64,000 nt of DNA from Synergistaceae bacterium (lineage in GTDB: Bacteria; Synergistota; Synergistia; Synergistales; 79-D21): assembly GCA_012517195.1 (NCBI GenBank), contig JAAYVK010000039.1, forward strand, positions 85 to 64,084. The letters run 5' to 3'. A model generated the notes under the pieces. It was given only the letters and a program-made list of their open reading frames with translations. It ran no database searches and had not been told where the DNA came from. Position 1 is the stretch's first letter. Each line of letters begins with the position of its first letter. A program made the translations under genes and the position numbers. This document shows, one piece after another, positions 2,526-63,528 of the stretch.

Positions 2526-3220
2526 GACGGGGAAAATCCTTTCGCCGCTGACGAGGGGCAGAGTTCCGACAGGACGCACCGGTGACAGGCCGGTTTCCTG
2601 GAATGGCAGGTATTCCTGCCGTGAAGGATGAAGTTCAAATGCCCCCCACCCTGCCTTTCGCTGGGTACGGAAGCCTCAAGCTCCTCCTGGATTTCGGCGG
2701 GGCTCTGCCTTTCCGTAAACCAGCCCAATCTCCGGACGATTCGCGCCACATGGGTATCGACTGGGAAAGCAGGCTTGCCCAGCTCGAAAGCGAGAACACA
2801 GGCGGCGGTTTTCGGCCCGATTCCCGGAAGGCTTTCCAGGTAGGAGCGCGCTTCGGCAGGATTCCAGCTTTTCAGGGAATCGAGATCATAGGTTCCAAAA
2901 TCCAGTCGAATCCTCGTGAGAATCTCGCGAATCCTCGCGGCCTTTGTCGGAGCCAGGCCGGCAACCCGAATGGAATCAACCAAAGCCTCCATCGGGGCAT
3001 CCATCACCTGCGCCCAGGTCGGCCACCGCCTTTTCATCTCGAAAAATGCCCTCTCGCTGTTTATGTCGTTCGTATTCTGCGAAAGGAGGGTCGCAATGAG
3101 CCCGTCAAGGGGGCTGCCGAACGACCTGTCGTGAGGCCCCTTCTCCTTTCCCCAGACATTTTCAAGACGGTCCAGGACGGCAATAAGCTTTTCCCGTTCA
3201 ATCGCTGTTCTCGGGTTCAT
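2522..3220 (-). CDS. nth: endonuclease III (HhH-GPD DNA glycosylase/lyase)
   Basis: HhH-GPD motifs (LESLPGIGPKTAACVLAF, PVDTHVARI) and a C-terminal FeS cluster loop CHSRKPACHRCVLSELC. Confidence 0.9.
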   Translation of the reverse strand: MNPRTAIEREKLIAVLDRLENVWGKEKGPHDRSFGSPLDGLIATLLSQNTNDINSERAFFEMKRRWPTWAQVMDAPMEALVDSIRVAGLAPTKAARIREILTRIRLDFGTYDLDSLKSWNPAEARSYLESLPGIGPKTAACVLAFELGKPAFPVDTHVARIVRRLGWFTERQSPAEIQEELEASVPSERQGGGHLNFILHGRNTCHSRKPACHRCVLSELCPSSAAKGFSPS

Positions 3221-5651
3221 CCGATTCCGGTTCCGTTTTCTTGCTGTCTTCAGCGCTCTTTTTGAGCTTTCGGCTTTTTTCCATCCAGGTTTTGAGTTGT
3301 TCCATCACTTTCCCGTAGACGGTGCCGGAGGGATAATCCCCCTTTTCATCCGCCTCCCCGGCTGGAACCCCGGTGAGGATCTCGATCCCCTGCTCCACCG
3401 TTTCGACCGCCCAGATATGGAACAGCCCCTTTGAAACGGCCTCAAGGACCTCGTGATCCAGCATGAGATTGATAATATTTTGCTTGGGAAGCAGAACTCC
3501 CTGGTTGCCGGTGAGTCCACGGGATGAGCAGTAACGGAAGAAACCTTCGATTTTTTCATTGGCCCCGCCGATTGGCTGAATGTTTCCGAACTGGTCCACG
3601 GAACCCGTTACAGCGATGGACTGGTTGATCCCCACACCTGAGAGGGCGGAAAGAAGCGCGTAAAGCTCTGTGGATGAGGCACTGTCTCCCTCGATGCCGT
3701 CGTACGTTTGTTCGAATGCGAGACGCGCAGAAAGAGAAAGGGGCATGTCTTTCGCGAAACGCCGTCCCAGGAAGCTGCTCAAGGTCAGCAGCCCCTTGTT
3801 GTGGATCGGGCCGGTCATCTTGACTTCGCGCTCGATGTTGACCACGCCTTCCTGCCCCATGTAGACGTTGGCCGTGATTCGAACGGGATGTCCGAAGGAA
3901 TATTCCCGGAAATCGAGGACGGTGAGTCCGTTGATCTGCCCTACGGCAAATCCGTCGGTGTCGATTCGAATCTGGCCGTTTTCGTACGCCCTCTGGATTC
4001 TCTCCTCGATCAGGTTGGAGCGGAATCGCTTGGCGTTCAGGGCCTTTCTGACGATGTCCGCGGTCACGACTTTCCGTGACAGCTTTCGAGCCCAGGCAAC
4101 GGATTCGACGAGGATTTCCTCGATTTGGTTGAAATGGGTGGTCATGCGGGTCTGGTTTCCCGCCAGGCGTGAGGAAAATTCTATGATCTCGCCCACGCCG
4201 TCCGCGGTGAAATGCAGGCCGCCTTCTTTCTGGACATAACTGGCGACGAAACAGGCAAGCTGCTTTTCGGTCGATCTTGTCCGCGGCATGTCGACATCGA
4301 AATCCGCCTTGATCTTGAACAGTTTCTGGAATTCCGGGTCATAGAGGTTCAAAAGGTAGTGAATCCAGCGGCTTCCGATGATGACCACCTTGATCTGTAT
4401 CGGGATGGCCTCGGGTCTCAGGGACGAGACCGGGACGAACCCAAGCTGTTCACCCAGATTCTCGATGGAAAGTTCCTGTGTGCGTAGAACGCGCTTGAGA
4501 GCCTCCCAGGACATGAACTGCCGGAGAATTTCTTCCGCATCAAGAACGAGGTAGCCCCCGTTTGCCCGGTGAACGGCACCGGGAACGATTTTCCGGAAAT
4601 CCGTGTAGAGGTATCCCTGGCGGCTTTCATATTCCACTTTGCCCACCAGGTTGTAATAGGTCGAGTTGGTTTCATGAACGATGGGTGCCCCCGCTTCCGG
4701 GTCGTTCGATACGAAAACGTTGACGCTGTAACGGCTGAAGTCGACTTCGGCGTTTTCATCGCGGGCAGCGGCGATGAAAATGTTGAAGTTTTCGATGATG
4801 TCATCCGTCAGGGCGTCGATCCACTCGGTAATCTTTTCCCCTTTCCCGTACTGGGTCTTCAAGTCCGCCAGGTAGGGACGGATTGCGTTGCGGCAGATCT
4901 CGGCCTCCAGGTTCTTGATTTTTTCCTTGAGGTTCTTTTCAAGGTCCCGGATCTTTCTCAGGACTTCGAGGGTCTTTTGGGAAACTTCCTCCGACCTGGC
5001 CTGAAGCTGTTTCTGTTCCGCTTCGGAAAGATTTTCAAACTCTTCCTGCTGCATTTCCTTGCTGATCACGTTTCCCTCTTCGTCCTTGGCCTGGGAAAGT
5101 GGAATGTTCACGAACCCCTGCGGGGTCCGCTTGATCGAGAAGCCCTTTTCCAGGGCCCAGTTCCGGACGGATTCCATCAGGGAATTGACCTGTTCCTGGA
5201 ACTCTTTTACGAGAGTGGCCTTTGCGTCTTCGTACTGGCTGTTTTCGAAAGCCTTGCTCAGGGTGGTCTTCAGCTCGTCGACGAGTTCGGAAAGACTCTC
5301 GGAAAGCTTCTTGCCCATGCCCGGCGGAAGGTTGATCGCCAGGGGCTCGCCCGCGTTCATGAAATTGTAGACGTACAGCCAGTCATCAGGCGAAGGAAGC
5401 TGGGAGGCACGCTTGCGGAGCTGATCCAGTGTATAGGTGGTTCGTCCGCTTCCGTGATCCCCGACGACAAAAATGTTGTATCCCTTGCTGGATACATCCA
5501 GGCCGAATTCCATTGCTTCAACGGCTCTCTGCTGACCGATCAGTCCCTCGAGACAGCCGATTTCTGCGGTTGTTTTAAATCCGAGGGAGGTGTGGGGCGT
5601 TTTCTTTCTCAGCTTTGAAAGGGGAAGTTCAAAATTCCTCGGTCTCGGCAT
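3198..5651 (-). CDS. Lon-like (LonC-type) protease with degenerate AAA+ module
   Basis: C-terminal S16 Lon protease domain with GDSAS serine motif (YDGIEGDSASSTELYALL) and lysine region (GGANEKIEGF). The N-terminal AAA-like domain is interrupted by a long charged helical insert. The Walker A position reads GDHGSGRTT. ATG at 5651 has SD GGAGGG 6 nt upstream. Confidence 0.8.
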   Translation of the reverse strand: MPRPRNFELPLSKLRKKTPHTSLGFKTTAEIGCLEGLIGQQRAVEAMEFGLDVSSKGYNIFVVGDHGSGRTTYTLDQLRKRASQLPSPDDWLYVYNFMNAGEPLAINLPPGMGKKLSESLSELVDELKTTLSKAFENSQYEDAKATLVKEFQEQVNSLMESVRNWALEKGFSIKRTPQGFVNIPLSQAKDEEGNVISKEMQQEEFENLSEAEQKQLQARSEEVSQKTLEVLRKIRDLEKNLKEKIKNLEAEICRNAIRPYLADLKTQYGKGEKITEWIDALTDDIIENFNIFIAAARDENAEVDFSRYSVNVFVSNDPEAGAPIVHETNSTYYNLVGKVEYESRQGYLYTDFRKIVPGAVHRANGGYLVLDAEEILRQFMSWEALKRVLRTQELSIENLGEQLGFVPVSSLRPEAIPIQIKVVIIGSRWIHYLLNLYDPEFQKLFKIKADFDVDMPRTRSTEKQLACFVASYVQKEGGLHFTADGVGEIIEFSSRLAGNQTRMTTHFNQIEEILVESVAWARKLSRKVVTADIVRKALNAKRFRSNLIEERIQRAYENGQIRIDTDGFAVGQINGLTVLDFREYSFGHPVRITANVYMGQEGVVNIEREVKMTGPIHNKGLLTLSSFLGRRFAKDMPLSLSARLAFEQTYDGIEGDSASSTELYALLSALSGVGINQSIAVTGSVDQFGNIQPIGGANEKIEGFFRYCSSRGLTGNQGVLLPKQNIINLMLDHEVLEAVSKGLFHIWAVETVEQGIEILTGVPAGEADEKGDYPSGTVYGKVMEQLKTWMEKSRKLKKSAEDSKKTEPESDEPENSD

Positions 5652-5715
5652 TTCTTTCCCTCCAGTCAAGTGCAGTCCATGCGTTTATGTTAGCACAGGC
5701 CGGGTCCGGATGCCT

Positions 5716-45317: not shown

Positions 45318-46637
45318 CTATCGGTTTTCGGGATTTTGAGCGCGCCAAAATATTCTTAACGGAGAACCGGAAAAATCTTCCAATTCCCGCAATTTCTTTT
45401 CAACGTGACGGTTGAAGGAGGTGGTGACGATTTTCGGGTCGTTGACGAAGAAGGCAAAAGAGGGCGGGGCCACCGACACCTGCGTGCAATACGAGAGCCG
45501 AAGCACTTTCCCGGATCGGCTGCAGGGCATCCTTTCAAAAGCCAGGAGATCCTTCAGAAGTCTGTTCAGCTTGCCGGTGGAAATTCGCCGACTCCGGTTT
45601 TCCGCGACCCGGAAAAGGATAGGCGGTAATTTTTCGACTCCCCTTCCCGTCAGGGCAGAAACGAAAAGCACCGGTACATGGGAAGCGAAAGAGAAGCCTT
45701 CACGGATGCGGTCCCGTATTTCGTCTCCCAGCCTGGGGCTTTTTGGCAGCAAATCCCACTTGTTCACCAGGAAAACCAGGCCTTTTCCCCGTTCCAGGAC
45801 CTGTCCTGCGACCCGCTGATCCTGTTCCGTCGCGATTTCCTGGGCATCCATGACAAGGACGCAAACATCCGCACGATCGATTGCCTGGTAAGTCCGAACC
45901 GTCGAGTAGTATTCCAGTGCGGAATCCACGTGGGATTTCTTGCGGAGGCCCGCTGTATCCACCAGGCGGACAAGGTGCCCGTCGAGCTGAACGAGGGAAT
46001 CCACGACGTCGCGGGTCGTTCCCGGGAGATCGCTTACCAGGGCCCTGTCCTCTCCGGCCAGGAAATTGAGCAGGCTTGATTTCCCCACGTTCGGCCTTCC
46101 GATCAGGGCGACCCTGAGCGTTTCCATGTCATCATCGATTTCTTTCCCGGCAAGAAGTTCCCGGATGTGCTCAAGGAGGACCTCGATGTTCCTTCTGTGC
46201 TCGGCGCTAATGCCGACCACCCTTTCGAACCCCAGTTCCATCGAAGACCAGAGTTCGTTCTCGTGAACAGGATCATCCATTTTGTTGGCCGCAACTATGA
46301 CCGGCTTCCCGGATTTTCTCAGAAGCATGGCGATGTCCCGGTCGATTCCAATGGGACCTTCCCGCCCGTCCAAAACAAAGAGGATGACATCGCTTTCCTC
46401 GATCGCCACTTTCACCTGACGGGCAATGAGCTCATCGAGAGGATGTCCGCTTTCCGGCAGAAGCCCCCCCGTATCGACGAGGTAAAAGCGGAGATCCCCT
46501 TCTTCGACTTCAGCATAGAGGCGGTCCCGGGTGACCCCGGGCATATTGTCGACGATGGCCCTTCGAGTCCCCGTCAACCGGTTGAATAGGGAACTTTTGC
46601 CGACGTTCGGTCTGCCGACGATGGTGACGATAGCCAT
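45318..46637 (-). CDS. der: ribosome-biogenesis GTPase Der (EngA)
   Basis: Two tandem G domains (GRPNVGKSSLFN, DTGG; GRPNVGKSSLLN, DTAG, NKWD) and a KH-like C-terminus. Confidence 0.95.
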   Translation of the reverse strand: MAIVTIVGRPNVGKSSLFNRLTGTRRAIVDNMPGVTRDRLYAEVEEGDLRFYLVDTGGLLPESGHPLDELIARQVKVAIEESDVILFVLDGREGPIGIDRDIAMLLRKSGKPVIVAANKMDDPVHENELWSSMELGFERVVGISAEHRRNIEVLLEHIRELLAGKEIDDDMETLRVALIGRPNVGKSSLLNFLAGEDRALVSDLPGTTRDVVDSLVQLDGHLVRLVDTAGLRKKSHVDSALEYYSTVRTYQAIDRADVCVLVMDAQEIATEQDQRVAGQVLERGKGLVFLVNKWDLLPKSPRLGDEIRDRIREGFSFASHVPVLFVSALTGRGVEKLPPILFRVAENRSRRISTGKLNRLLKDLLAFERMPCSRSGKVLRLSYCTQVSVAPPSFAFFVNDPKIVTTSFNRHVEKKLRELEDFSGSPLRIFWRAQNPENR

Positions 46638-46652
46638 GGAAACCCACTCCCG

Positions 46653-48473
46653 TTATTCAAAATCGACGCAGAGGCGAGGAATTTTGCAGCTTGTGATGTT
46701 AACTGAGAAAAAGGGCTCCAGGATTTTTCGGAGCTTTCCCAAATCACGGACCTTGACTTGAATCGAGTCTGCACCGCGGATACCCGCGAGCACCTCGATC
46801 CCCTCCTGTTCCATCGCGTCCCTGATCTGTTTCAGGATTTCCCCGCGATGGGAAACTTCAACGAGAAAAGAATAGGGAGGCAGGTCCAGCTCGTTCCTTT
46901 CTCTCAGCTCCTGGTTCCAGAAAAATTGGAAACCGGCTTCAAGGGCGATCTGCCATCCCTGCCTCGGCCGTCTGCTTTGCAGGAGGACCTTCCGCTTGTC
47001 CGCGTTTTTGCCGACCCAGCACGATTCCCAGATGACACGGAAACCTTCAGCCCTCGCACCGAAATCGGGTTTCCAGTCTGTGGTGTCTGCGTCCAGCCAG
47101 GCAATCAGGCCGACATCAAGATTTCTGCACAAACCGAGGAGAGAGCGCGTCCCGAGAAGAATTCCAGCCCTTTGTCCCAATTTCCTGTACAAATCCTTTC
47201 TGGCCTTTTTGCCCATCGAGGCGAACTCGGCCAGGAGAAAGACCGGCCCCTCCGACCTGAAATGATCAAGCGCAGCCTGAAAAGTGGACTCCAGTCCCAA
47301 TTGGCGGGCTTCCACCAGGCGGCTTCGGCAAAACGGGCAGACTTCCGGCCATGGGATCTCTTCCCCGCAGGAAAGACATTCTCCGAGCTTTTTCTCGAGA
47401 TGCCATCTTGTCCTGCCGCCGCAGCGGCTGCAGCTGATTGTCCGCCCGCACTCCAGGCAGCGCAGTTCACCTGCATAACCTTTCCGGTCAAGGAGCCAGA
47501 GGGCATTTTCCCCATCATTAAGGCATCTGCGGGTTTCGTCAAGGAGCTTCCTGGAAAGAGGAATCTCCTGATTGGAAAAGAAAGAAGGGGTCCCGCTCCG
47601 GCCCGGGGATGGGGATTTGACAAAAACCACCCGGCCCCTTGGAAGTTCGGGGGCATTGACGCCGGAAGTAAGATAAACCCGGGAAGAGGGAAATGTCCCG
47701 CCCAGGATCAGGGAGGCACCTGAAAAAGAAGCCCGTTTTGCGGCGACGCTTCTTGCGCTGAGCCTCGGAAAAAGGGGCATCTGGTGGCCAGGATCGGCCT
47801 CTTCCTCGACAATAACGAGGGAAAGCGCCCCCAGGGGGGCAAAAACAGAGCCTGAGGTTCCAAGAACGATCTTTCTTTCAAGAAGGCGAACGGCTTTCCA
47901 GGTTTCCCATAACCTGTCCCCACCCCCGACCGGCCAGACGCAGGCATTCTCCCTCAGGCCCGCCGGCAGGGTTTCGTAGAAGGATTGGAGGCGCTCCCGG
48001 TCCGGGAAAAGGACCAGTGTGCCATTTTCATTTTTCTCGATGGCTTCGGTGTACCTTTGGAAACGATCGGATTCCCGCGGAAAATAACAGAAGGAAGGCG
48101 CTCCTGCCTGCCGGGAAATCGAGGACGGGCGTTCGGCCGGACTGAACTTTTGGCCCTTCAGAAGAGCCGAAGGGCAAGCTGCCTTCAGAACGTGTCCGAC
48201 TCCGAAGGGAAGGGCCGCCCCCAGCCACTGGACCGTTCTCCAGAGATCCTCGGTCAGGCAGGGAGTTGGGTCGATCACGGAATAAAGGTTGCGAAGAGGC
48301 TTATCGGTTCGAGTTGCATTCAAAAAGGCCGACGATTTCCAGGTAAACCCGGTACGAAGCCCTTTGCCCAGCGGAACGAGTACGCGCAGCCCTTCCGGGA
48401 GGGGGTTTTCAAAGGAATAGGTCAGAGGCGTCCACCAAGGCGATGGAAGAACGACGTCAATTTCGTGGAGCAC
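46653..48473 (-). CDS. priA: primosomal protein N' (PriA) homolog with degenerate helicase motifs
   Basis: PriA N-terminal DNA-binding region, zinc Cys-rich region (CLECGRTISCSRCGG..CLSCGEEIPWPEVCPFCRS), and coaBC-priA synteny. Walker A, DEEH, SAT and motif VI positions are substituted. Start is uncertain: GTG at 48473 is chosen just after the coaBC stop, and the track extension to 48701 overlaps coaBC. Confidence 0.8.
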   Translation of the reverse strand: MLHEIDVVLPSPWWTPLTYSFENPLPEGLRVLVPLGKGLRTGFTWKSSAFLNATRTDKPLRNLYSVIDPTPCLTEDLWRTVQWLGAALPFGVGHVLKAACPSALLKGQKFSPAERPSSISRQAGAPSFCYFPRESDRFQRYTEAIEKNENGTLVLFPDRERLQSFYETLPAGLRENACVWPVGGGDRLWETWKAVRLLERKIVLGTSGSVFAPLGALSLVIVEEEADPGHQMPLFPRLSARSVAAKRASFSGASLILGGTFPSSRVYLTSGVNAPELPRGRVVFVKSPSPGRSGTPSFFSNQEIPLSRKLLDETRRCLNDGENALWLLDRKGYAGELRCLECGRTISCSRCGGRTRWHLEKKLGECLSCGEEIPWPEVCPFCRSRLVEARQLGLESTFQAALDHFRSEGPVFLLAEFASMGKKARKDLYRKLGQRAGILLGTRSLLGLCRNLDVGLIAWLDADTTDWKPDFGARAEGFRVIWESCWVGKNADKRKVLLQSRRPRQGWQIALEAGFQFFWNQELRERNELDLPPYSFLVEVSHRGEILKQIRDAMEQEGIEVLAGIRGADSIQVKVRDLGKLRKILEPFFSVNITSCKIPRLCVDFE

Positions 48474-49689
48474 CAGCCGAACCCGCTTCCAGGATGAAAT
48501 CCCACAATCTCCAGGCGACTTCTTCTTTTGACCCGGAGAATGTCTCTTTTCCGCCTTTTTGGTCGAGGATGTGAATGGTGTTGTGTTCTGAGCCGAACGC
48601 CCCATCCGGGCCTGTGATCCTGTTCGCAACAATGAAATCGAGGTTTTTCGAAACCAGTTTTTCTGCGGCGTTTTTTTCGAGCGCGTGGGATTCCGCGGCA
48701 AACCCGATCAGGACCTGGCCTGGCTTCTTCCTTGCCCCGATCGTGGCGGCAATGTCAGGGTTCTGTTCGAACTGGACGACCAGGCTATTTTTCCCGCCTC
48801 GCTTGATTTTTTCAGCGGAAAATTCCTTCGGGCGATAATCTCCTACCGCAGCGGCCTTCACGATAAAGTCTGCTCTTTCGGCCTGTTCCAGAACCGCCTC
48901 GAGCATGTCCAGGGCACTCTGCACACGCACGAGGGCGACTCCATGGGGAGGCTGGATCGAGACCGGCCCCGAAACCAGCGTGACTTCCGCGCCCCTGTAC
49001 CACGCGTTTTGGGCGATGGCATATCCCATCCTGCCCGAACTCGGGTTCGAAATGAAACGGACGGGATCCAGGAACTCCCAGGTCGGTCCGGCTGTAACCA
49101 GCACTTTCTTCCCCTCGAGATCGCGAACCGGGCAAAGGATTCGCCAGATTTCCTCAAGGATGACCTCAATGGAAGGAAGACGCCCCCGTCCCTCTGTTCC
49201 GCAGGCCAAAAAACCGGTATCCGGCTCAAGGACCCGGTACCCGTTTCTGAGGCAGGCCTCCTTGTGCCTCATCGTCGTCTCATGTTCCCACATGTTCACA
49301 TTCATCGCCGGGCACAGGAGTACCGGGGCACGTGTTGCCAGAAGCGCCGCGCCGAGAAGAGTTTCAGCCTCCCCGTTTGCCGCCCGGCGCATCATGTTCG
49401 CGGTGCAGGGCGCGATGCAGACGATTTCCGCCCATTCCGCCAGGGTGATATGGGGAATTTTCCAGCCGTTTTCAAAATCAAGAAAGTCCTTCTGCAGCCA
49501 TACCCGACGCCCGGAAAGAGTTGACAGCACGAGAGGGCTAACCAGCCTCTCCGCGGATTCGGTAAGGATGATTTCCACTTCGTTCCCGGCGCTCCTAAGG
49601 CGACGGACGAGATCCGGAACCTTGTACGCCGCAATTCCTCCGGTTATGCCCAGAAGAATCCGGCGCCCCTTTTTCCATTCCATGCTCAA
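48457..49689 (-). CDS. coaBC: bifunctional phosphopantothenoylcysteine decarboxylase / phosphopantothenate-cysteine ligase
   Basis: ILLGITGGIAAYK.. flavoprotein domain (PAMN), and a CoaB domain (LVTAGPT..DPVRFISNPSSGRMG). ATGA overlap with rpoZ. Confidence 0.93.
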   Translation of the reverse strand: MSMEWKKGRRILLGITGGIAAYKVPDLVRRLRSAGNEVEIILTESAERLVSPLVLSTLSGRRVWLQKDFLDFENGWKIPHITLAEWAEIVCIAPCTANMMRRAANGEAETLLGAALLATRAPVLLCPAMNVNMWEHETTMRHKEACLRNGYRVLEPDTGFLACGTEGRGRLPSIEVILEEIWRILCPVRDLEGKKVLVTAGPTWEFLDPVRFISNPSSGRMGYAIAQNAWYRGAEVTLVSGPVSIQPPHGVALVRVQSALDMLEAVLEQAERADFIVKAAAVGDYRPKEFSAEKIKRGGKNSLVVQFEQNPDIAATIGARKKPGQVLIGFAAESHALEKNAAEKLVSKNLDFIVANRITGPDGAFGSEHNTIHILDQKGGKETFSGSKEEVAWRLWDFILEAGSAGAPRN

Positions 49690-57150: not shown

Positions 57151-57227
57151 TGGTGGGCCCACCTGGAATCGAACCAGGAACCTTCCGGTTATGAGCCGGT
57201 GGCTCTAACCAATTGAGCTATGGGCCC
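57151..57227 (-). tRNA. tRNA with CAU anticodon (elongator Met or lysidine-type Ile2; not initiator), CCA encoded
   Basis: Manual cloverleaf: acceptor GGGCCCA/TGGGCCC, D-arm GCTC-AATTGGTTA-GAGC, anticodon loop CTCATAA, T-arm CCTGG-TTCGATT-CCAGG, discriminator A. No C1:A72 mismatch and no GGG/CCC anticodon stem. Confidence 0.88.
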
Positions 57228-59545: not shown

Positions 59546-61471
59546 TCAAAGCCTCGTTTGCCGAAGAATTCGTTTTTCCCCGACCCTCCTGGTTACTCCG
59601 ATTGAATCCATGTACTCCAAAAAGGGCAGAGCATACTTTCTCGATGATCCGGAAAGATCCCTGAACGCCGCAAGTGTAATGCCATCCCCGCACTTCCGAA
59701 GGATCTCGATCCCCTTCTCCAGGATTTCGCGGGAAAGGACGAGATCACCGCCGATCACGTGGATTTGCGAGTTTTCCCTGAGCTGGCGAAGAAGGTTGGA
59801 AAATTCCCGGCGGTCCAGGCCGGTTTCAAGTAAGGCCTCCTCCAGGGAGGGCAATTCGAAACCCCGTTTACGGCAAAGCCCCAGAAGGCGCTCCGTCTCC
59901 TTCTCGTACCGGGAAGCTTCCCTTTGTTCGAAACCGCTCAATGCAACACGGTTTTCAAAAATACGCAGAAGCCCCTTGTCAGCGAAATGGGAAAGGGCCG
60001 CCTTTGCAAGCCTTGGGTCTTCTCCCCGGAAAAGTCCCGCGAGCGCTTCCTCGAAGGTCATCCCGGCCAGGTGCGGTTCCCGTTCGTGAAAGCGGGATAG
60101 CCGCTCGGAAAGCAGGGCCCATTCGGTTTCCATCCGTTTCCTGGAAATCAGCCAGGTCAACCCGGAAGAAAGGACAACGACAGACTCCCTGACCCGCTGG
60201 TCCTCAAGAACATCCTTCAGGTCCAGAACAGGAAGCTGGGTGATTTCCGAAGCTCTCTCCAGCGTCACGACGCCGACCTCCCCGAGGATTGCCCCGATCC
60301 TTCCGGAAAAGCTTTGCGAAAAGGAAAGCCGACGAATCATTTCCTGGTAGCAATCTTTTTTCTCCCGGTTCCGGGGCTTCCACCCATAGGGGAAAAGAAC
60401 CTGTCCTCCCCCTATCGTCTGGAGAGGGCTATAGGAACGAATGACGAAGCGCTGCCCGTACGCAGCTGTAATCGGTTCTTCCAGCACAAGCTGGGCCAGG
60501 CTGCTTTCACCGGGATGGATTTTTGCCGAGGGGTCAAAAAAGCAAACCCGGCAAAGGATGTCCGAAGTCCCAATATGCAGCCGGACGCGCTGCCAGTGCT
60601 TAATCGGCTCCTTGTTGCCCTTCAGGGATTTCAGGGCAACGTCCAGGCACTGGGTCGGTTTGAAGAGAGAAGGGCTGCAGAGGACGTCACCGCGGCGGAT
60701 CTCCTTGAAAGAGATCCCCGCAAGATTTACCGCGGTCCTTTGACCGGCAAAGGCTGCCTCGACCGGAGCCTCGTGCACCTCCAGGCTCCTGACCCGGGCG
60801 ATCTTCCCCGAAGGAAGGAGCTGAACCTCCTCCCCGACCCTGATCACTCCGCTGTATGTCGTTCCTGTGATCACAGTACCGAATCCAGAAATCGGGAAAA
60901 CCCGGTCGACGGGAAGGAAAAACGGCCCCTTGCTGGAACGTGGCTTCAAAGCTTGGGAAAGTTTCCGGATCTCCGAAAGCAATTCTGTAATACCGGTTCC
61001 ATTCAAGGCGGACACAGGGACAATCGGCGCGCTTTCCAGGAAACTGCCCTTCAGGAGGGCGCGAACATCTTCCAGGGCCAGTTCAAGGAATTCCGGGTCT
61101 ACCCGGTCGACTTTCGTCAGCGCCACGAGACCGTTTTCGATGCCCAGCAGCTGGAGGATATCGAGGTGTTCGCGCGTTTGCGGCATCACGCCCTCATCCG
61201 CGGCCACGACAAAAAGCACCGCGTCAATACCGGCTATTCCGGCAACCATTTGCCGGATGAACCGCTCGTGGCCCGGGACATCGACAATGCTGACGGTCGT
61301 CCCGTCGGGAAGCTCCAGCGGGGCAAAACCGAGTTCAATCGTGATGCCCCTTCTCTTTTCCTCCTCGAGCCGGTCACAGTCGACCCCCGTCAAAGCCCTG
61401 ACGAGAGCCGTCTTCCCATGATCGATGTGCCCGGCCGTTCCGAAAACAAGGGGAATTTCATGACGCTTCAT
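59546..61471 (-). CDS. selB: selenocysteine-specific translation elongation factor
   Basis: G domain GTAGHIDHGKTALVRALTG..DVPGHERF..TKVD, and a long C-terminal winged-helix (SECIS-binding) extension. Coupled to selA by a 14-nt overlap. Confidence 0.93.
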   Translation of the reverse strand: MKRHEIPLVFGTAGHIDHGKTALVRALTGVDCDRLEEEKRRGITIELGFAPLELPDGTTVSIVDVPGHERFIRQMVAGIAGIDAVLFVVAADEGVMPQTREHLDILQLLGIENGLVALTKVDRVDPEFLELALEDVRALLKGSFLESAPIVPVSALNGTGITELLSEIRKLSQALKPRSSKGPFFLPVDRVFPISGFGTVITGTTYSGVIRVGEEVQLLPSGKIARVRSLEVHEAPVEAAFAGQRTAVNLAGISFKEIRRGDVLCSPSLFKPTQCLDVALKSLKGNKEPIKHWQRVRLHIGTSDILCRVCFFDPSAKIHPGESSLAQLVLEEPITAAYGQRFVIRSYSPLQTIGGGQVLFPYGWKPRNREKKDCYQEMIRRLSFSQSFSGRIGAILGEVGVVTLERASEITQLPVLDLKDVLEDQRVRESVVVLSSGLTWLISRKRMETEWALLSERLSRFHEREPHLAGMTFEEALAGLFRGEDPRLAKAALSHFADKGLLRIFENRVALSGFEQREASRYEKETERLLGLCRKRGFELPSLEEALLETGLDRREFSNLLRQLRENSQIHVIGGDLVLSREILEKGIEILRKCGDGITLAAFRDLSGSSRKYALPFLEYMDSIGVTRRVGEKRILRQTRL

Positions 61472-62876
61472 TTCCCTTGGCCTCCCTTTCGGCGGCAATG
61501 CGGGCCAGGGCACACCGGATTTTTTCGAAATCCCCGTCTTTCAGCGTTCTTACGTGAATTCTCAAGGCATCTTCCTTGACGGCCGCAACGACGGGAATTT
61601 CCCCTTCCCTTAGCTTTTCCTGCAGTTCGCCCGCGGAAATGCCCGGATGGGCGACAGAAACCCCGTACCCCTCGAGCGGGATCTCGGGGTAACTCCCGCC
61701 CCCGACGGCATCCTGGACAGGAATCGTGGAAAACGTGAAGGAAGGACAGCGGGTTCTCAGATATCGGCAAAGCCGGCGCGCCTTCTGCAAGATCGCGTTC
61801 TTGTCTGCAGAAATCATTTTGATCGTCGGGATCGCCTCCGCATTTCCCGAAAGGTTCTCCCTGAGAGTGGCTTCCAGGGCAGCCAGGGTCATTTTATCCG
61901 GCCGCAAGGCCCTCATGAGCGGATGCCGTTTCAGCTTCTCGATGAGTTGGGACCTGCCTGCGATGATCCCCGCCTGGGGGCCGCCCAGCATCTTGTCGCC
62001 TGAGAAGGTCACGAGGTCGACTCCGGCCATGATGCATTCCCGGACGGAATTTTCCCCCTTCAGGCCGAAGCTGCCCGGATCCAGCAGGAAGCCGCTCCCG
62101 AGATCTTCCAGGAAGATCAGCCCCTTTTCCCGTGCTAGGAAGGCCAGGTCTTCACGGGGAACCTCCGAATGGAAGCCGACTATCCTGAAATTGGAAGGAT
62201 GGATTTTGACGAGCATGGCAGTGGTTTCTGTGATGGCCGCTTCATAATCGCGAAGATGAGTCCGGTTCGTCGTCCCCACTTCGACAAGCCGTGTCCCCGA
62301 AGCTGACATGATTTCCGGAATCCTGAACGAACCGCCGATCTCCACAAGTTCCCCTCTTGAAACGATCGCATCCTTCCCGGAAGAAAGAGCGGAAAGACAC
62401 AGGATCACGGCTCCCGCGTTGTTGTTGACCACCAGAGCAGCATCGGCTCCCGTCACCTGGGTCAGGAGCCATTCCACGTGGTCGTTTCGGTATCCCCGTT
62501 CTCCCGAAGAGCGGTCGTATTCCAGCGTGCTGTAGGAAGAAGCGCATTCCAGCACCGCTTTCAGTGCGGACTCGCAAAGGCAGGATCTTCCGAGGTTCGT
62601 GTGAATGACGACCCCCGTTGCATTGACGACCGGGACCAGGCTTCTCGCGGACGCTTTCGCGATTCGCTCCCGGGCCGTTCTCCGGATCAGGTCCACGTCG
62701 ATGCTGATCGTCGTTCCTTCGAGTAGGGATTTCCGTAAGCTGCCGATGATGTCGGAAAAAATATTCTTGACGGCCTGGCGCCCGATTATTTTCTCGAACG
62801 GAGCGACCCACTCTTCAGAAAGAAGGATTTCCATTGAAGGAATGCGTCGGAGCAGTTCCCTGACCCTCTCGTCCAT
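61458..62876 (-). CDS. selA: L-seryl-tRNA(Sec) selenium transferase
   Basis: VVNATGVVIHTNLGRS..NNAGAVIL..FSGDKMLGGPQAGII (PLP lysine) are SelA signatures. ATG at 62876. Confidence 0.93.
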   Translation of the reverse strand: MDERVRELLRRIPSMEILLSEEWVAPFEKIIGRQAVKNIFSDIIGSLRKSLLEGTTISIDVDLIRRTARERIAKASARSLVPVVNATGVVIHTNLGRSCLCESALKAVLECASSYSTLEYDRSSGERGYRNDHVEWLLTQVTGADAALVVNNNAGAVILCLSALSSGKDAIVSRGELVEIGGSFRIPEIMSASGTRLVEVGTTNRTHLRDYEAAITETTAMLVKIHPSNFRIVGFHSEVPREDLAFLAREKGLIFLEDLGSGFLLDPGSFGLKGENSVRECIMAGVDLVTFSGDKMLGGPQAGIIAGRSQLIEKLKRHPLMRALRPDKMTLAALEATLRENLSGNAEAIPTIKMISADKNAILQKARRLCRYLRTRCPSFTFSTIPVQDAVGGGSYPEIPLEGYGVSVAHPGISAGELQEKLREGEIPVVAAVKEDALRIHVRTLKDGDFEKIRCALARIAAEREAKGNEAS

Positions 62877-62922
62877 ATCACCGACCCCTTTTCGATTGAT
62901 TTCCCCTTTTGAGTTTAACGGG

Positions 62923-63528
62923 TTACGGCTCATTCGGGCTGCATGGCGAACAAATGTCGCCGGTCAAAAGCAAAAGAAGGTGCCGGATCAGGATCGTCAT
63001 CGCTTCGGAAGTCAGAATTACTGGAGATAGAGTTTCCAGGGGACAGCCGGGAGGTGCGGGGAGGCTCACCAGCGTTGTGTTTCCGCCCGTCTGCGATTTC
63101 TGGACTTCGTCGGCCTCAGGGTCAAAAAGGAGAACCCATCCTTCGAAAGCCATCCCCACAAGGGACCATTCTTCTGCCCCGATCTTTGGGGGAAGTTCGT
63201 CGTACCCCGCATGCCCGGCTCCGGTGTCGGCAGAACGAAGAATTTCGGCAAGACCCGGCAAAAGACCTGAAAGGTTTTCTCCCGCGAGTAGCATTTTCCG
63301 GTCCGAAATGTCGGCTTTTTCGTAAAGGCGAACGGCAATGGGGAGGCCCTTTTCGGAAAGATCTTCGGTCCGGGATTCAAGAAAGGAGAGCCCGGACAGC
63401 AAAGAAGGGTCCACGGACGTTTCGAATCCAGGCACGGCAGAAGCCTGACGCGAAGCAGCCAAGCTCAGGATCTGCTCTGACAGGTCGTCGGCAATTTCTT
63501 CGGGAACGGAAAAGAAAACGGTGTCCAA
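62923..63528 (-). CDS. hypothetical acidic protein; weak resemblance to the N-terminal (non-catalytic) part of PrmA
   Basis: TTG at 63528 has SD TAGGAGGGG 5 nt upstream, right after the hemW stop. It gives MDTVFFSVPEEIADDLSEQILSLAAS... No catalytic or SAM-binding motif is seen. Function is unknown. Confidence 0.5.
   Translation of the reverse strand: MDTVFFSVPEEIADDLSEQILSLAASRQASAVPGFETSVDPSLLSGLSFLESRTEDLSEKGLPIAVRLYEKADISDRKMLLAGENLSGLLPGLAEILRSADTGAGHAGYDELPPKIGAEEWSLVGMAFEGWVLLFDPEADEVQKSQTGGNTTLVSLPAPPGCPLETLSPVILTSEAMTILIRHLLLLLTGDICSPCSPNEP

Follow-up and report, generated by a model that had tools for sequence, protein, structure and literature searches.

A phylum-wide, predicted PriA pseudohelicase in Synergistota

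The closest described precedents for a PriA without a working motor come from Deinococcus-Thermus, whose PriAs match motifs I and II poorly and carry arginine in the Walker lysine position, and whose D. radiodurans member showed neither ATPase nor helicase activity in vitro and bound forks, single-stranded DNA and DnaB (Lopper, Boone & Morrow 2015, PMC4504706). A second precedent is the E. coli mutant PriA K230R (priA300), in which ATPase, helicase and translocase activities are abolished and which still supports restart via PriA-PriB (PMC5778457). Here we report that a gene in a 64,000-nucleotide stretch from a Synergistaceae bacterium (GenBank assembly GCA_012517195.1, contig JAAYVK010000039.1, positions 85 to 64,084 of the forward strand; hereafter the window) is best read as the single orthologous PriA of this Synergistota bacterium, turned pseudohelicase (Table 1). 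A preliminary description of this DNA, made from its letters alone, had mentioned an ATPase-inactive PriA from Deinococcus, which corresponds to the work of Lopper et al. 2015 (PMC4504706). With a PriA pseudohelicase thus already known from Deinococcus, the Synergistota apparently provide a second, phylum-wide, more extreme and so far undescribed case, and our literature search found no publication on PriA in Synergistota of this kind.

Setting the Synergistota protein beside these precedents revealed both shared and distinct features. With Deinococcus-Thermus PriA it shares the degenerate motifs I and II and the replacement of the Walker lysine by arginine, and both groups are DciA-type phyla, as Synergistetes and Thermus-Deinococcus alike carry DciA in the dnaA-dnaN-recF-gyrB region (PMC5109545). 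Going by the published description, the Walker A change in Deinococcus-Thermus is a lysine-to-arginine exchange within GKT, whereas in Synergistota the whole glycine-rich loop and motifs III and VI have been replaced by new conserved sequences, and this in a short protein (606 amino acids, without a winged-helix (WH) domain) that belongs to a different phylum. Matching a 20-mer from a published Deinococcus priA cloning primer against metagenome contigs yielded five chance matches, which encode a 38-amino-acid open reading frame (ORF) and are not priA. E. coli priA300 also has an arginine at the Walker lysine and assembles primosomes, but it carries one engineered substitution in a helicase that is otherwise intact, and it needs PriB and DnaT. 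PriB and DnaT are not known outside some proteobacteria, and the PriA-PriC route in E. coli still requires helicase activity. With canonical PriA from E. coli and K. pneumoniae (PDB 4NL4, 6DCR, 6DGD, 8FAK) the Synergistota protein has in common the fold and the order of parts, namely a 3' DNA-binding domain (3'BD), lobe 1, lobe 2 with a two-zinc cysteine-rich region (CRR), and lastly a putative C-terminal domain (CTD), together with motifs Ia and Ib, motif V's GT, and the blocks LxRxGYA and (Y/L)PPF. Unlike canonical PriA, it is without the WH domain, motifs I, III and VI, and the histidine of motif II.

Table 1. Position and character of the Synergistota priA gene, its domains and motifs, and its immediate neighbors in the window.
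Feature	Residues	Window position	Strand	Canonical PriA	Synergistota	Remarks	Basis
priA coding sequence, Synergistota-type PriA, predicted pseudohelicase	606 aa + stop	46653..48473	-			GTG start	homology, fold, homologue starts
3' DNA-binding domain	1-105	48159..48473	-				Pfam PF17764; residue frequencies in 75 species
Linker	106-125	48099..48158	-			in place of WH domain of long PriAs	alignment; 6dcr_A match
RecA-like lobe 1	126-290	47604..48098	-			fold intact, ATP motifs replaced	AlphaFold2 pLDDT mostly >90; Foldseek
Former Walker A / motif I	131-141	48051..48083	-	GVTGSGKTEVY	YePrDsdRwerY	lost; FPRESDRFQRY in window protein, no glycines, acidic residues present; only Y130, R137, Y141 conserved
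Motif Ia				LvLVPE	LvLFPE	kept
Motif Ib				RSAVFAPL	GAVFAPL	kept
Former motif II and start of aromatic/basic loop	220-230	47784..47816	-	DEEH	DEE / EEE then S, N or A	His lost, acidic triad kept; VIVEEEADPGH in window protein, E223-E224-E225-A226 for D-E-E-H
Former motif III	255-265	47679..47711	-	LGSATPS	LGGRmPS	lost; LILGGTFPSSR in window protein, G258-G259-T260 on S-A-T
RecA-like lobe 2	303-530	46884..47567	-			CRR inserted	AlphaFold2, Foldseek, HMM
Pre-CRR block				LNRRGYA	LDRKGYA	kept
Clade signature WLLDRKGYAGE	326-336	47466..47498	-	FLNRRGYAP	WLLDRKGYAGE	near-invariant, in place of canonical block
Cysteine-rich region	339-382	47328..47459	-			four CxxC pairs, 8 Cys, two Zn sites	alignments
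Motif V				GTQ	GTR	G, T kept
Former motif VI	482-490	47004..47030	-	QVAGRAGR	WEScWRG	lost; WESCWVGKN in window protein, both arginines lost
C-terminal domain	531-606	46656..46883	-			beta-alpha-beta-beta-alpha-beta	AlphaFold2 and full-length Foldseek alignment to PriA; no Pfam PriA_C match
CTD start				YPPF	LPPF	kept
der (engA)		45318..46637	-			directly downstream of priA, 15-nt gap	Pfam MMR_HSR1 x2 and KH_dom-like
coaBC		48457..49689	-			directly upstream of priA	Pfam DFP and Flavoprotein
rpoZ	79 aa	49686..49925	-			between gmk and coaBC	Pfam RNA_pol_Rpb6, E=7.6e-13

Evaluation of the protein by profile, fold and genomic position identified it as PriA. The Pfam scan matched PF17764 (PriA 3'BD) across the entire model (positions 1-96 of 96; E=1e-11, 45 bits vs a cut-off of 22.7) and returned no DEAD, Helicase_C, PriA_CRR or PriA_C match. 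The top matches in NCBIfam were all to PriA models (best E=1e-50), with all scores well under the curated cut-offs (147 bits vs 230 for TIGR00595; 173 vs 763 for NF004067), such that the curated equivalog threshold (TIGR00595 / PRK05580) was missed. Sequence identity to canonical PriA is 20-23%, and phmmer against PDB sequences retrieved the K. pneumoniae and E. coli PriAs at 2e-31. A profile of 36 family members retrieved these same PriAs at E=1e-71, aligned with 6dcr_A, an E. coli construct from which the WH domain is deleted, in a single stretch (profile positions 5-569; E=1e-70), and matched the 3'BD of PDB 2d7e (E=3e-12). An AlphaFold2 model computed on the family alignment (predicted local distance difference test (pLDDT) 85, predicted template modelling score (pTM) 0.84) contains the two RecA-like lobes of a superfamily 2 (SF2) helicase core, and a Foldseek search with it returned PriA for all of the top nine PDB matches (E 1e-38 to 1e-29; best 8fak_H, template modelling score 0.77), the next fold family being Mfd at E=1e-8. 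The gmk-rpoZ-coaBC-priA order places the gene at the orthologous genomic position of priA. The protein therefore has the PriA fold and is orthologous to PriA, and here the preliminary description, which had recognized a PriA architecture in the conserved coaBC-priA position, is borne out by the 3'BD, profile and AlphaFold2/Foldseek results on the first count and by the Pfam families of the flanking genes and 80 Synergistota loci on the second.

To characterize the ATP site, we set 75 Synergistota sequences against 74 PriAs whose motifs are intact, which revealed that all ATP-contact motifs are lost apart from the acidic Walker B. In the profile alignment to 6dcr_A, R137 (48063-48065) falls on E. 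coli K230 of GSGKT and is invariant in 75 species, and Y141 falls on the tyrosine of TEVY; the motif I region between and around them has no conserved glycine, positions 131 and 134 are commonly acidic, and position 132 is commonly proline. The Walker B residues remain acidic as (D/E)(E/D)E, with E225 invariant. Former motif III carries (near-)invariant G259, P262 and S263, and former motif VI carries (near-)invariant W482, S484, W486 and G488, its S484-C-W-V-G-K being aligned on S-G-R-A-G-R by the hidden Markov model (HMM). Regular-expression searches over the full proteins found an [AG]x4GK[ST] P-loop in none (0/36) of the family members and no DExH/D at a conserved position in those 36, with three isolated DExD/Q matches lying at unrelated sites. 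An intact SF2 set (I GxGKT, II DExH, III SAT, VI QxxGRxGR) was found neither at the aligned positions nor elsewhere in the protein.

These results largely agree with how the preliminary description had read the gene. The peptides FPRESDRFQRY and VIVEEEADPGH and their coordinates were right, and its placement of EEEA on DEEH, GGT on SAT and ESCWVGKN on motif VI is reproduced by HMMER alignments to solved PriA structures, in which ESCWVGKN falls on (Q)VSGRAGR; the flanking blocks that it had aligned (LVLFPDRE / LVMVPEIG and IVLGTSGSVFAPL) likewise agree with the profile alignments. Its statement that every helicase motif is degenerated stands for the ATP-contact motifs but goes too far for the acidic Walker B, motifs Ia and Ib and the GT of motif V, all of which are kept. 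The intact P-loop or DExH box that it had allowed might lie elsewhere in the protein was looked for with the regular expressions above and is excluded. Its proposal that the protein has probably lost ATP hydrolysis and may act as a scaffold gains support from the disappearance of the ATP-contact residues and from the invariant arginine at the Walker lysine, and judging from these residues we consider the ATPase of Synergistota PriA very probably dead. That the protein would still be a nucleoside triphosphatase (NTPase) or helicase with a non-canonical site, for example one in which Arg137 and the DEE/EEE triad hold a Mg-nucleotide without a glycine loop, appears highly improbable. The retained acidic Walker B, the invariance of E225 and R137, and the well-folded RecA-like lobes of the model would suit such a site, but it would have to operate with no conserved loop glycine, with acidic residues common at 131/134 and proline at 132, and with both motif VI arginines and the SAT of motif III gone. 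Moreover, K230R alone inactivates the E. coli enzyme, and the PriA of D. radiodurans has no measurable ATPase even with a less degenerate P-loop.

The elements that contact DNA and zinc present a different picture, as most of the 3'-end pocket in the 3'BD is retained, along with both motif Ia and motif Ib, the character of the aromatic-rich loop, the CRR and a CTD-like unit. In E. coli the residues of the 3'-end pocket include Asp17, Tyr18, Gly37 and Lys61 (PMC5778457), and the Synergistota equivalents are kept at Y19 in 74/75 sequences, at G36 in 67/75 and as R/K61 in 68/75 (R61 in the window protein), with the Asp17 equivalent changed to Thr or Ser (T18 in the window protein). The aromatic-rich loop of PriA sits directly after motif II (PMC5175346), and within residues 226-245 of the Synergistota proteins position 230 is W/Y/H in 73 of the 75 sequences, positions 231 and 234 carry R/K, and P236 and R241 do not vary. 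Each of the CRR cysteines (C339, C342, C348, C351, C366, C369, C379 and C382) is invariant or at least 95% conserved. A candidate S10-like CTD appears in the model as a beta-alpha-beta-beta-alpha-beta unit at 536-604, with Pfam PriA_C giving no match and the HMM alignments fading past about residue 569. The WH domain is absent, leaving an alignment gap of about 130-200 columns relative to 740-850-amino-acid PriAs and a 20-residue linker in its place; because the domain is also missing from many short canonical PriAs whose motifs are intact, it does not define the whole family. The clade also has invariant residues of its own, among them P12-W13-W14 (48432-48440) near the start of the 3'BD and the tryptophans W192, W326, W459, W482, W486, W507 and W519.

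Clade-specific peptide patterns, run against one genome for each GTDB species, gave 92 tblastn-confirmed loci, and the names of the best 80 of these 92 are Synergistota throughout, except for one record titled only 'bacterium'; they span Synergistaceae, Aminobacteriaceae, Thermovirgaceae, Acetomicrobium, Dethiosulfovibrio, Aminivibrio, Cloacibacillus, Aminiphilus and Caccocola. The closest relative among the listed loci (L005) is 84% identical. The replacement motifs WLLDRKGYAGE, LGGRxPSS and WESxWRG are conserved in 75 Synergistota species, across which 66 positions are at least 95% conserved, including R137, E225, G259, P262, S263, W326-Y333, W482, S484, W486 and G488. The reading frame is intact in every locus examined. 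A search through 1.84 billion representative proteins divided the clade into about 55 clusters at 50% identity, all scoring >310 bits, with generic PriAs following from about 287 bits. Two of the orthologues (P0029 and P0109), one from Aminivibrio pyruvatiphilus (WP_133956789.1) and one from Aminirod propionatiphilus, are called 'prephenate dehydrogenase' in RefSeq, and the same orthologues are called PriA by GenBank and JGI. Because the family falls below all NCBIfam PriA cut-offs, automated pipelines may score Synergistota as being without PriA.

The gene is under purifying selection across the phylum and is clearly constrained. Nei-Gojobori estimates of dN/dS (omega) for priA were 0.147 (dS 0.58) against L005 and 0.150 (dS 1.27) against a second locus (L001). 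By domain, the CRR was the most constrained part (0.06; block 321-395), followed by lobe 2 (0.10-0.14; block 396-530), with lobe 1 at 0.17-0.19 (block 106-320), the 3'BD at 0.16-0.24 and the CTD at 0.13-0.23. Neighboring housekeeping genes in the same genome pairs had omega values in a comparable range (0.00-0.14), with hflX (0.12-0.14) coming closest to priA, rsmA at 0.10-0.12 and der at 0.035. A tblastn search with a canonical PriA (P0083) detected no second PriA-like sequence in the 64-kb window or in the 80 Synergistota loci (up to about 14 kb). These values bear on the idea that the gene is a decaying paralogue or pseudogene drifting neutrally while an intact priA elsewhere does the work, an idea that could appeal to the gene being the fastest-evolving of its cluster, to its scores below every NCBIfam PriA cut-off, and to the view of 64 kb of the genome. 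We nevertheless consider decay extremely improbable, given the intact frame in all loci, the constraint on all domains, the near-invariance of the replacement motifs over 75 species, the ancestral coaBC-priA slot with its apparently coupled start codon, and the lack of a second PriA-like sequence in the window or the 80 loci. Neutral drift as such is rejected by an omega of 0.15 overall and of no more than 0.24 in any domain. The preliminary description had suggested looking for purifying selection on the substitutions in orthologues, and such selection is what omega and the phylum-wide conservation reveal; of the counter-scenario that it had raised, a second intact priA beside a neutrally evolving copy, neutrality is excluded and a second priA is excluded for the 64-kb window.

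What such a protein might do is suggested by the combination of parts lost and kept. As the motor motifs are replaced and the DNA- and zinc-binding parts are kept, a passive fork-recognition scaffold is the most likely role, and by analogy with the described systems we think it likely that Synergistota PriA serves as an ATP-independent fork sensor and helicase-recruitment scaffold. A partly acidic loop without glycines stands where the P-loop was, and the protein would neither bind nor hydrolyze ATP and so would neither translocate nor unwind. Abandoned forks and D-loops would still be recognized via the pocket of the 3'BD, via motifs Ia and Ib and the aromatic/basic loop, and via the CRR and the putative CTD; the CRR, together with the rigidified core, would probably recruit the replicative helicase DnaB; because Synergistota use DciA, a loader-like factor, DciA would probably be recruited too. 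Such a mode of action would have its parallels in D. radiodurans PriA and, for the PriA-PriB pathway, in E. coli priA300. More speculatively, Arg137 and the acidic Walker B triad may pair in an internal salt bridge, which would occupy the former ATP site and hold the lobes in one arrangement, and the tryptophan-rich replacement of motif VI might help to fix the two lobes.

A different fate for the ancestral protein is a neofunctionalized PriA derivative, a structure-specific DNA-binding regulator or repair factor, with restart passing through a second PriA, a PriC/Rep-like route or a RecG-dependent route. We judge this unlikely. The long stem branch of the clade, its many clade-specific invariant Trp and Arg residues (PWW, W192, W326, W459, WESxWRG, W507 and W519) and the lost WH domain are what one would expect of a new function, yet the parts specific to fork recognition in restart (3'-OH pocket, CRR and the putative CTD) are kept, the synteny is unchanged, the Deinococcus analogue still binds forks and DnaB, and canonical PriAs without the WH domain are common.

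Several points weigh against the reading of the gene as a fork-sensing pseudohelicase. Evolution of priA is the fastest in its cluster, with about 35% identity across the phylum vs about 55% for der and coaBC. The search for a second priA covered 64 kb of the genome, and a canonical copy could lie elsewhere in it. The inactivity of the clade members is deduced from their sequences, and the conserved acidic Walker B together with the arginine at the lysine position could leave some residual binding of a nucleotide or anionic ligand. The partners DnaB, DciA and SSB and the contacts with them are proposed by analogy, and the salt bridge between R137 and Walker B is conjectural.

A broader and bolder proposal, which we offer tentatively and regard as unlikely, is that loss of the PriA motor is either an ancient trait of a proposed Deinococcota-Synergistota(-Thermotogota) lineage or recurrent in DciA-type bacteria. 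In Synergistota, on this proposal, the ATP pocket would have become an Arg137/Walker B latch and WESxWRG would have replaced the arginine fingers, so that the lobes would be locked in one conformation and PriA would sense forks constitutively and independently of nucleotide, with DnaB/DciA recruited directly by its CRR.

Looking beyond the clade, we found that similar losses occur elsewhere. Among the next roughly 95 representatives beyond the clade, 16 proteins of 607-677 amino acids are also without Walker A and motif VI, several of them with an arginine at the Walker lysine. Taken together, at least 18 short non-clade PriA-like proteins are without part or all of the ATPase motifs (P0182, P0184, P0187, P0196, P0199, P0206, P0207, P0213, P0216, P0217, P0222, P0228, P0233, P0243, P0248, P0258, P0087 and P0089; also loci L081:4001-5887 and L083:4001-5929), most of them with neither Walker A nor motif VI, and many of them with arginine at the Walker lysine. 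These proteins keep LNRRG and some also keep the GTQ signature, and two of them stand in priA-def-fmt synteny. In a neighbor-joining tree they fall beside short canonical PriAs and apart from the Synergistota clade. A profile built from them scored canonical PriAs nearly as high as its own best members, and because its matches were mostly canonical PriAs, the non-clade degenerate proteins do not form one clade; they look like scattered, separate motor losses that recur in uncultured lineages. One of them, P0199 (MCD6420071.1), is of this non-clade type and is labelled 'Synergistota bacterium', and would come either from a deep Synergistota lineage whose PriA is of another kind or from a contig that was binned wrongly.

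The gene start and the surrounding genes were also evaluated. The longest possible ORF at priA reaches 48701, its extra part falling within the upstream coaBC; the start at the position of MLHEIDVV is the start in all homologues. The end of coaBC, with its stop, and the beginning of priA, with its GTG start, share 17 nucleotides in different frames (window 48457-48473), and this overlap suggests that translation of priA is coupled to that of coaBC. By Pfam, hflX, remA, gmk, rpoZ and coaBC lie upstream of priA, and der and an HU gene lie downstream, followed by rsmA/ksgA on the opposite strand. The order remA-gmk-rpoZ-coaBC-priA is that of Bacillus subtilis, and because the cluster follows this order the gene occupies the ancestral priA slot. 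The order hflX-remA-gmk-coaBC-priA-der-HU is kept, at least partly, in nearly all of the best 80 Synergistota loci. The small rpoZ gene completes the Bacillus-like remA-gmk-rpoZ-coaBC-priA cluster, an arrangement that stands out in a diderm phylum.

Elsewhere in the window, selB and selA (selenocysteine machinery) are adjacent at 59546-62933 on the minus strand, with a tRNA gene about 2 kb away (57154-57227, minus strand), and an Rfam scan of the window found two tRNAs and nothing else. A context scan further identified an 823-amino-acid Lon-like protein at 3198-5669 on the minus strand, with matches to LonB/LonC-type AAA and LonC helical domains.

The Synergistota thus represent a second whole phylum in which the motor of PriA appears to have been disabled, even more thoroughly than in the first, in a protein that is held by purifying selection, and similar losses are found in scattered metagenomic lineages. 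What had seemed a single exception in Deinococcus is widened to a recurring pattern, with no new mechanism revealed. A practical consequence is that, with the family scoring below threshold and members mislabelled as 'prephenate dehydrogenase', automated surveys would miss PriA in Synergistota. The protein offers a natural, highly diverged separation-of-function PriA with which to study how DnaB is handed off to forks in DciA-type bacteria. Such bacteria make up the majority of bacteria. These findings strengthen the view that the essential job of PriA is fork recognition and helicase recruitment, not unwinding.

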